Below are positions 4,058 through 4,426 of a stretch of 32,000 bases of DNA, one piece after another. The notes beneath the pieces were generated by a model that searched no databases, was not told the origin of the DNA, and worked only from the letters and a program-made list of their open reading frames with translations. The stretch is taken from assembly GCA_964496765.1 (NCBI GenBank), contig CAZCAP010000002.1, positions 60,001 through 92,000 on the forward strand, given 5' to 3'. Every line of letters starts with the position of its first letter. Position 1 is the first letter of the stretch. A program made the translations under genes and the position numbers. The stretch is from an uncultured archaeon. GTDB lineage: Archaea; Iainarchaeota; Iainarchaeia; Iainarchaeales; CSSED10-239.

Positions 4058-4426
4058 GGTAATTACTAGTAATTTTAAAGTAATTACCTAAAATTAGATT
4101 TAAAATAACTAAATAAACACACCACATATACATAAATTTAATAACTACTATAATTAAAATTATAAAAAGTAGCAGATATCATAAAAATAATGATTTTTGT
4201 TATGTATCAACCACTGTAATTACTATAATTACCATATAAGCGCTTAAGTAATTACCAGCGTTACAGAAAGCTTTATAATAATTACGGTAATTACTATAAT
4301 AGATAACTATGAATTTAAAAGATATATTCAAAGGATTTACTAATATATTCAAATCCAGAAATAAACCAGATAACACAAATATCAACAATAAAAAAGATGG
4401 TAATTACCATAATGAACGTAATTACG
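4058..4426. repeat. cluster of palindromic GTAATTAC sites (iteron/operator-like)
   Basis: Perfect GTAATTAC occurs at 4059, 4080, 4216, 4248, 4287, 4400 and 4418. TAATTAC occurs at 4226 and 4279. The copy at 4399-4408 is the full 10-bp palindrome GGTAATTACC. A 10-bp palindrome TAAGCGCTTA at 4237-4246 sits between two of the sites. Confidence 0.85.

Follow-up and report, generated by a model that had tools for sequence, protein, structure and literature searches.

An array of palindromic octamers beside the gene of an order-specific winged-helix protein lies at a switch of strand asymmetry in Iainarchaeota

Layout and conservation of the octamer array

In the present work, we analyzed by computation a dense array of the palindromic octamer GTAATTAC that extends from upstream of the gene of a small winged-helix protein into the gene itself, together with the chromosomal position of this locus. 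The array lies in a stretch of 32,000 nucleotides (G000:C2:60001-92000; referred to below as the window), whose assembly (737,780 bp in 26 contigs, 29% G+C) has the gene content typical of a small DPANN archaeon, with MutS, Trm56, TFE, a class II ribonucleotide reductase, Cdc48, RFC, and type IV pilus genes, and for which the source names of homologues point to the Iainarchaeota. We compared the locus with its orthologues, in particular those of family f1, to which G000 and its congener G001 belong; the f1 genomes share kinship and are not mutually independent. From its upstream end, the array and the gene are laid out as follows (positions in the window, strand given where one applies):

4059-4066 and 4080-4087: distal pair of two perfect GTAATTAC sites, 21 bp from start to start
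4088-4215: AT-rich spacer that separates the distal pair from the proximal array by 128 bp, a candidate unwinding region
4127-4135, plus strand: conserved block TATACATAA within the spacer, with five copies in the whole 738-kb assembly
4216-4232: proximal double site 1, GTAATTAC-TA-TAATTAC, whose counterpart in the alignment is the first TAATTAC-N-GTAATnAC unit of the f1 consensus
4248-4255: proximal site 2, a perfect GTAATTAC, which aligns with the second double site of the f1 consensus
4272-4279, plus strand: TATA-like box TTTATAAT, ∼34 bp 5' of the ATG, a putative promoter element
4278-4294: proximal double site 3, ATAATTAC-G-GTAATTAC, with the TATA-like box on one side and the start codon on the other
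4309-4929, plus strand: gene of the 206-amino-acid winged-helix protein, with an N-terminal amphipathic motif (NIFKS), an Asn/Lys-rich variable linker, and a winged helix at about residues 115-203
4400-4407 and 4418-4425: two intragenic perfect sites, each encoding Asn-Tyr in the variable linker

Rereading the letters returned all seven perfect copies named in the original prediction (starting at 4059, 4080, 4216, 4248, 4287, 4400, and 4418), the two copies that match seven of eight positions (TAATTAC, at 4226 and 4279), and the two longer palindromes GGTAATTACC (4399-4408) and TAAGCGCTTA (4237-4246), with the cluster spanning 4059-4425 and a degenerate GTTAC at 4260-4264, after proximal site 2. 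The accompanying statement that the window holds a single further perfect copy had to be amended to two (25824 and 27554). These nine perfect copies compare with 0.8 expected from shuffled sequences, and none of 100 shuffles reached nine. Across the assembly we counted 38 copies, seven of them at the locus, and found no spread of the octamer through intergenic DNA: the other 31 match the ∼31 expected from base frequencies, they are divided into 29 coding and 2 intergenic copies in line with the 90% coding fraction of the assembly, and none of them occupies a promoter-like position. A search for a regulon, covering perfect and paired sites elsewhere in G000 and in two genomes of the same order, G005 and G036, gave background only, and a full-text literature search for GTAATTAC returned nothing relevant. 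The GTAATTAC cluster is real, single in the genome, and far beyond chance.

The same array was then sought in relatives, and sites were present upstream of the orthologous gene in 29 of the 30 loci with usable sequence, with 5 to 10 perfect copies per locus in family f1 and 2 or 3 in distant families; GTAATTAC is the only strongly enriched word common to all upstream regions. At the extreme, the only two copies in the 1.3-Mb genome G035 lie 24 and 75 bp before the ATG of the orthologue, and two of the five copies in G036 lie at the locus. The consensus of family f1 consists of the distal pair, the AT-rich spacer, and then three TAATTAC-N-GTAATTAC units spaced every ∼30 to 32 bp, each unit being approximately a 17-bp palindrome because each octamer is itself palindromic. 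The last of these units, TTTAAAATAATTACGGTAATTACTAT, ends 8 to 15 bp 5' of the ATG, and TAATTACGGTAATTAC is nearly invariant across 17 f1 loci. The distal pair, spaced by 12 or 21 bp, is found in most f1 loci examined, a spacer of ∼95 to 125 bp is retained, and within it TATACATAA lies at −137 to −183 in the same orientation in 12 of the 17 loci, the remaining ones carrying CTACATAA. In duplex stability calculated over 100 bp, the interval C2 64050-64150 falls at the 97.7 to 98.2 percentile of the least stable segments and is not the extreme of the contig.

Distant families retain the same core (e.g., TATTTAAGTAATTACGG...ATG), with their two or three sites mostly 41 to 51 bp apart, and in nearly all loci of the order the ATG-proximal site lies at about −15 to −25. 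The additional sites inside or behind the gene are lineage specific. The congener G001 (L016) has its intragenic sites at the same +91 and +109 positions; genus g4 has them at +73 and about +103 to +115, where they also encode Asn-Tyr; and in genera g5 and g3 the additional sites, two or three in number, follow just past the stop codon instead. Neither L010 nor L013, both orthologous regions, retains the palindrome TAAGCGCTTA.

The winged-helix protein and its conserved neighborhood

The open reading frame at 4309-4929 is a real, conserved gene with a C-terminal winged-helix domain. Among 91 homologues, the C-terminal ∼85 residues are about 70% identical, the N terminus carries a short amphipathic NIFKK-like motif, and the middle is a variable Asn/Lys/Gln-rich linker. 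An AlphaFold2 model has a predicted local distance difference test score (pLDDT) above 90 over residues 130 to 200, with an H-H-H-beta-hairpin topology, and its best Foldseek matches are the winged-helix domains of Fur, PerR, ArsR, PadR, and BlaI (E ∼1e-3); as modeled, the fold is a generic winged helix of no specific family. Comparison of the 206-residue protein with Pfam, NCBIfam, and PDB sequences gave no match, and comparison with PHROGs gave a weak one only. A profile search of 1.84 billion representative proteins collected 37 clusters, 36 of them at an E value of ≤1e-10 and nothing weaker, with no relatives beyond the family. The gene is single copy in 151 genomes of a 201-genome sample of the phylum (55 of the 58 high-quality ones), all 151 belonging to the order of the window, and it was found in none of 19 genomes from five other families. 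Judged by these sequence searches, the protein family is new and confined to one order.

The proposal that the sites form a multi-operator array for a DNA-binding protein, with the winged-helix gene as a candidate for autoregulation, is strongly supported by the co-conservation of motif and gene across the order. In all f1 loci, TTTAAAA or TTTATAA directly precedes the last site pair, and in distant families TTTAAA or TTATAA directly precedes the ATG-proximal site; in both, the interval from the TATA-like box to the ATG always contains one site. An operator between the TATA box and the transcription start is the classic position for an archaeal repressor. Given this invariable placement, it is very likely, as far as promoter sequences can tell, that the winged-helix protein represses its own gene. 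The distance of ∼34 bp between the TATA-like box and the ATG further suggests a leaderless mRNA or one with a very short leader.

The neighborhood of the array contains the following features:

3762-3838, plus strand: tRNA-Met (CAT), called by ARAGORN, Rfam tRNA score of 62.5 bits
3885-3903, plus strand: dispersed 19-mer TGTTATATTTGTTGGACAC, which follows the tRNA also in L010 and L013
4931-5545, minus strand: ORF204, convergent neighbor of the winged-helix gene, syntenic in L010 and L013, with 40 homologues in the same lineage
5634-6008, minus strand: PRC-barrel protein, part of the conserved block (Pfam PRC, 6e-7; matches to PDB entries 8qzo and 8onw)
6675-7535, minus strand: XerA tyrosine recombinase (NCBIfam NF040815, 278.9 bits versus a cutoff of 220), the sole copy in the assembly

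The conserved order reads MutL, MutS, tRNAs, Trm56, TFE, tRNA-Met, the long intergenic region, the winged-helix protein, ORF204, the PRC-barrel protein, XerA, an HD protein, CobO, and the reductase, and it is the same in L010 and L013, whose winged-helix proteins are only 53% and 70% identical to the one described here. The tRNA-Met is the conserved left neighbor of the array across the order: the same tRNA is present in L010, L013, and G036, and tRNA matches directly upstream of the array in G049, G063, and G119 are consistent with this. An A1:U72 acceptor end and three G-C pairs in the anticodon stem make it initiator-like, and it was the only match in an Rfam scan of the intergenic region. 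In G036 (C1:981850-981990, reverse strand), this tRNA carries an intron of ∼60 nucleotides, and the copies in G000, L010, and L013 have none. The 19-mer TGTTATATTTGTTGGACAC is probably not specific to the array locus, with 23 copies in the assembly (≤2 mismatches) on both strands, in and between genes, and at variable distances from start codons; further copies in the window lie at 7551-7569, 12216-12234, 15730-15748, and 19667-19685. Since it is dispersed genome-wide, it is not a recombination-site pair flanking xerA. On the other side of the gene, homologues of ORF204 are 198 residues long, so that its start is likely at 5527; its AlphaFold2 model (pLDDT of 88, predicted template modeling score of 0.83) has no fold match among PDB structures and may represent a new fold. 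PRC-barrel proteins act with SepF and FtsZ in archaeal cell division.

The original prediction had also likened the sites to iterons of a plasmid or viral origin. A tRNA gene directly upstream, a tyrosine recombinase 2 kb away, and a lower G+C content at 4 to 8 kb would indeed suit a plasmid or virus integrated beside a tRNA gene with its integrase. We reject such an element because relatives share the gene order of the whole block, MutL through ribonucleotide reductase, the recombinase is the only XerA of the genome and scores above the equivalog cutoff, and no repeat of the tRNA 3' end was found; moreover, no Rep-like gene is present at the locus, the winged-helix gene is a single-copy core gene of the order, and the PHROGs match is only weak. 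An iteron function of the sites is thus extremely improbable.

A switch of strand asymmetry at the locus

The only clustered target of the protein is its own gene, so that such a factor needs another purpose, and we therefore examined the idea of an origin in closed relatives. Raw GC and keto skews are confounded by gene orientation and were replaced by third-position skews and then by strand-corrected skews at four-fold degenerate sites, in which genes on both strands are compared within a region and coding-strand effects cancel. The sample comprised two closed genomes in full (G005, 839,632 bp, family f1; G036, 1,241,428 bp, family f16) and three partial genomes (G000, G011, and, from family f2, G022), with genes called simply as long open reading frames.

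Both closed genomes show a clean two-arc pattern, with the best breakpoint no more than one grid step from the locus. In G005, the breakpoints of the purine skew are at 770,000 and 330,000 and the locus is at 770,056-770,908; in G036, they are at 975,000-982,500 and 360,000 and the locus is at 981,046-981,467. Fits of the AT skew place the second breakpoint at 350,000-360,000, and depending on the skew measure and the arc counted it lies 157 to 189 degrees from the locus. Forcing the breakpoint to orc1-1 or orc1-2 costs a chi-square of ∼113 or 165 in G005 and of ∼280 or 243 in G036, and the skew shows no sign change at orc1 in G000, G005, or G036. Local fits of a single change point over spans of 100 to 200 kb gave offsets from the locus of +0.7 to +1.3 kb in G000, −0.65 to 0 kb in G005, −2.1 to −1.5 kb in G036, and −4.5 to −3.2 kb in G022, each with a permutation P value of ≤0.003. 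Between G005 and G036, only a block of 4 to 5 kb at the locus is syntenic and the genes at the antipode are scattered; the distance of genes from the locus is conserved (Spearman coefficient of 0.30, P = 4e-8), as would be expected if inversions had occurred symmetrically about an origin-terminus axis.

The four-fold sites show an asymmetry of purines versus pyrimidines, with A over T and G over C on the same strand (G005, G036, G011, G022, and G000:C2). The usual bacterial asymmetry is of the keto kind, with G and T together. As the four-fold sites of G005 contain only 4 to 5% G+C, the whole signal in this genome is A against T.

DPANN origins are usually assumed to lie next to cdc6. For a Diapherotrite, the Forterrea genome paper placed the origin next to cdc6 on the basis of raw GC skew (PMC5905446). 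The raw GC skew of G005 also bottoms near cdc6, yet the strand-corrected boundary lies 47 to 70 kb away, at the array locus. Of the earlier idea of an origin, the plasmid or viral part thus falls, and what stands is a candidate chromosomal origin or terminus, given that the locus sits at the strand-asymmetry switch in relatives.

Origin, terminus, operator, or anchor

Because no other promoter carries the motif and the module sits at the asymmetry switch, we infer that the main role of the protein-DNA complex is chromosomal. Our preferred explanation, to which we give slightly better than even chances, is that the GTAATTAC array consists of the cognate sites of the 4309-4929 protein and that the module marks or helps organize a single replication origin. 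The winged-helix protein would bind each octamer, on the 17-bp units probably as pairs, and the phasing of ∼30 bp would align the units along one face of the helix. By occupying the TATA-proximal unit, the protein would repress its own gene and set its own level, and the full complex, together with the distal pair, would bracket the AT-rich spacer containing TATACATAA. This complex may define or assist the replication start site or tether that site, the protein selecting the origin, assisting there as an accessory factor, or anchoring it; its long linker and the conserved amphipathic motif at its N terminus hint at contact with a partner or with the membrane. A bolder form of this explanation, which we put forward only tentatively and hold to be rather doubtful, is a lineage-specific replicator-initiator pair, in which the winged-helix protein and the array select the single origin of the order in place of recognition of origin recognition boxes (ORBs) by an adjacent Orc1/Cdc6. 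Here, Orc1 and MCM would be brought to the AT-rich spacer, or positioned on it, by the protein, which would also repress its own gene.

Several observations on polarity and on the orc1 genes point to an origin. Four-fold sites show one polarity everywhere: the strand that leads 5' to 3' away from the locus is rich in pyrimidines (T-rich in G005, T- and C-rich in G036), and an excess of T is the usual sign of a leading strand. In G005, 547 of 779 genes and 29 of 37 tRNAs are directed away from the locus, as are the 23S rRNA gene and the L2 ribosomal-protein cluster. The same direction is taken by ∼63% of the local genes in G011 and, in family f10, by 20 of 29 tRNAs in G063, 14 of 21 tRNAs in G119, the 23S genes of both G051 and G119, and L2 of G051. 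Every orc1 gene on the contig of the locus lies within 46 to 195 kb of it. The two orc1 genes flank the locus in families f10, f16, and f24; outside f1, on contig C1 of G036, G049, G051, G063, and G119, these orc1/cdc6 paralogues are on opposite sides of it at 77 to 174 kb (141 and 146 kb in G036), and in f1 both lie on one side, at 47 to 73 kb. Finally, the locus is a conserved site with a defined sequence, which the antipode lacks.

Other observations weigh against an origin. The strand leading away from the locus is C-rich at four-fold sites in G011, G036, G022, and G000, whereas leading strands are usually G-rich. Only 44% of the genes of G036 point away from the locus, and its L2 cluster points toward it; likewise, only 15 of 41 tRNAs in G049 and ∼39% of the local genes in G022 point away. 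The combined purine-skew change point of G011 lies 27 kb off the locus; its GC skew at four-fold sites flips from +0.185 to −0.206 at the locus. No orc1/cdc6 gene is adjacent, the nearest being 46 kb away in G000 and 47 to 195 kb away in relatives, and mini-ORB clusters (TCCA-N1-3-GGAAA) are absent at the locus, at orc1, and at the antipode. Finally, with two closed genomes, the sample for the genome-wide skews is small.

A scan of G005 and G036 for repeat arrays that could represent an alternative origin found only coding tandem repeats and one palindromic element at two places in G036. The latter, at G036:C1:341560-341860 and 1184800-1185000, forms intergenic arrays of the palindrome AAACCTTTT-N3-AAAAGGTTT with conserved flanks and may be a regulatory repeat or one resembling a miniature inverted-repeat transposable element; one copy is 23 kb from the skew antipode. 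In G005 (C1:304107-304346), a small gene with tandem Ala/Lys/Pro-rich repeats (AKKAPAKKVV-like) recalls histone H1-like or basic nucleoid proteins. In G000, the 5' end of orc1-1 and its upstream sequence are contained in an exact tandem duplication with a period of 672 bp (G000:C2:17821-18808; L001 2410-2725 and 3082-3397), which leaves an open reading frame for an 85-residue N-terminal Orc1 fragment and may be a real duplication or an assembly artifact.

The skew switch would fit a replication terminus equally well, with the winged-helix protein acting on paired sites like RTP at Ter or otherwise organizing the terminus beside xerA, a gene whose only copy in f1 is 1.7 kb away. Such a terminus, which we regard as improbable, would agree with the G-rich four-fold strand running toward the locus in G011, G036, G022, and G000—the standard leading-strand sign—and with the 56% of genes and the L2 cluster of G036 and the 26 of 41 tRNAs of G049 that are directed toward it; the units, moreover, pair a weaker with a perfect site and so resemble the auxiliary and core sites that make up an RTP target. 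It would, however, place 70% of the genes, 78% of the tRNAs, the rRNA gene, and the ribosomal-protein cluster of G005 head-on to replication, with a similar situation in f10, and we know of no such gene arrangement in prokaryotes. A terminus would also put the orc1 genes near it and call for an origin at the antipode, which is not syntenic between G005 and G036 and where neither the repeat scan nor the regions read contained anything origin-like. RTP is not among the 50 best fold matches of the protein, and no conserved dif-like site was found at the locus: a search for 11-6-11 inverted repeats conserved between genomes, also made with the P. abyssi dif arms (PMC2958812), gave only weak, nonsyntenic candidates, such a search being weak in AT-rich DNA. 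As a terminus met head-on by 70 to 78% of the genes and tRNAs in f1 is much less plausible than an odd sign of the GC skew, we favor an origin. Taken together, we consider an origin somewhat better than an even prospect, a terminus improbable, and a locus that is neither of the two less probable still.

It is also conceivable, though distinctly unlikely in our estimate, that the array is an autoregulatory operator and nothing more, the protein being an ordinary transcription factor whose other targets carry degenerate sites, and that conserved synteny has placed the locus at the skew switch by coincidence. The site between TATA box and ATG in every family, the mere two or three sites of distant families, mostly 41 to 51 bp apart, and a generic winged-helix fold typical of repressors all suit this explanation. 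Yet none of the other 31 perfect sites in G000 is promoter-like and G035 has no other perfect site at all, a factor that regulates itself alone has no evident purpose, and ten sites over 700 bp, some of them inside or behind the gene, are more than repression needs. Four of five local change points within 4.5 kb and both genome-wide breakpoints at the locus would, moreover, have a joint chance of roughly 1e-4 or less. Another possibility is a centromere-like or anchoring site resembling ParB-parS, RacA, or Noc, in which the N-terminal helix and the linker would attach the region around the origin to the membrane or a division protein; such a role is compatible with a locus at the origin, the protein itself not firing the origin, and we think it unlikely. 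It would account for the conserved N-terminal motif (e.g., MSNIFKKLLTKLGLLKK) followed by a disordered linker and the winged helix, for the sites within the protein's own gene—one parS of B. subtilis lies inside spo0J—and for the conserved PRC-barrel neighbor with its similarity to solved structures. Against it stand the low confidence of the N-terminal helix (pLDDT below 50) and the lack of a ParA or SegA gene in the conserved block.

Set beside known systems, the module reads as a variant of an initiator gene beside its replicator, and it also resembles an autoregulated winged-helix repressor. As in archaeal oriC with Orc1/Cdc6 and ORB elements, sites lie on either side of an AT-rich spacer, upstream of the gene of the presumed binder and overlapping its promoter, and the module sits at a strand-asymmetry switch; in contrast to oriC, the 206-residue winged-helix protein lacks an AAA+ module, an 8-bp palindrome takes the place of an ORB, mini-ORB clusters are absent, and orc1 is 46 to 195 kb away. 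WhiP, a Cdt1-like protein, has two winged-helix domains. With its oriC3, Sulfolobus sets a precedent for an archaeal origin that is specified not by Orc1 but by a winged-helix protein, WhiP, whose gene is its neighbor (PMC3607249). No sequence relationship was detected between WhiP and the 206-residue protein, whose family has no relatives outside its order. A further lead, by analogy, is the resemblance of TATACATAA to the Sulfolobus ucm motif ATTATACAAAC, an essential motif within origin unwinding regions that is bound by the accessory protein UBP (PMC12141716). It resembles the conserved ATATACATAA or TTATACATAA of the spacer over 8 to 9 AT-rich bases only, and UBP has hundreds of genomic sites, whereas GTAATTAC is clustered at one locus.

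Among systems other than origins, RTP of B. subtilis is a small winged-helix protein whose autoregulated gene lies beside paired binding sites at a replichore boundary. Its likeness to the present arrangement is therefore one of a small winged-helix gene beside paired sites at such a boundary; it differs in that a PDB sequence search revealed no homology, with only a generic winged-helix similarity in the Foldseek comparison, and in that gene and tRNA orientation in f1 and f10 favors an origin. In ParB-type systems, palindromic sites cluster near or inside the gene of the binder, and Noc has a membrane-targeting helix. Like ParB-parS, Noc, and SegB, the module has palindromic sites near and inside the gene of the presumed binder in a putatively origin-proximal position, and the N-terminal helix may target the membrane; unlike ParB-parS, the protein has no ParB match in Pfam or NCBIfam, the conserved block (the only region searched) has no ParA or SegA gene, and the sites are confined to ∼0.4 to 0.7 kb. 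The archaeal autorepressors MDR1, Phr, and LrpA have operators between TATA box and transcription start and share with the module an operator directly downstream of the own TATA box and a winged-helix DNA-binding domain, but the module has 7 to 10 sites that extend over as much as 700 bp, lacks other evident targets, and lies at the skew switch.

To our knowledge, how DPANN archaea specify their origins is essentially unknown, and almost none of them have been cultured. The module described here is a sequence-defined, order-wide marker of a replichore boundary away from orc1, and it supplies a candidate protein and an 8-bp site (17 bp as a pair) that could be used with recombinant protein. Whether origin or terminus, it may serve as an anchor for orienting metagenome-assembled genomes of the order and checking their assembly. 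If the locus is a terminus, it would be the first archaeal terminator-like system; if it is an origin, the protein would be the second non-Orc1 winged-helix protein specific to an origin, after WhiP; and the replicator-initiator pair, if true, would represent a new class of archaeal origin-recognition protein.

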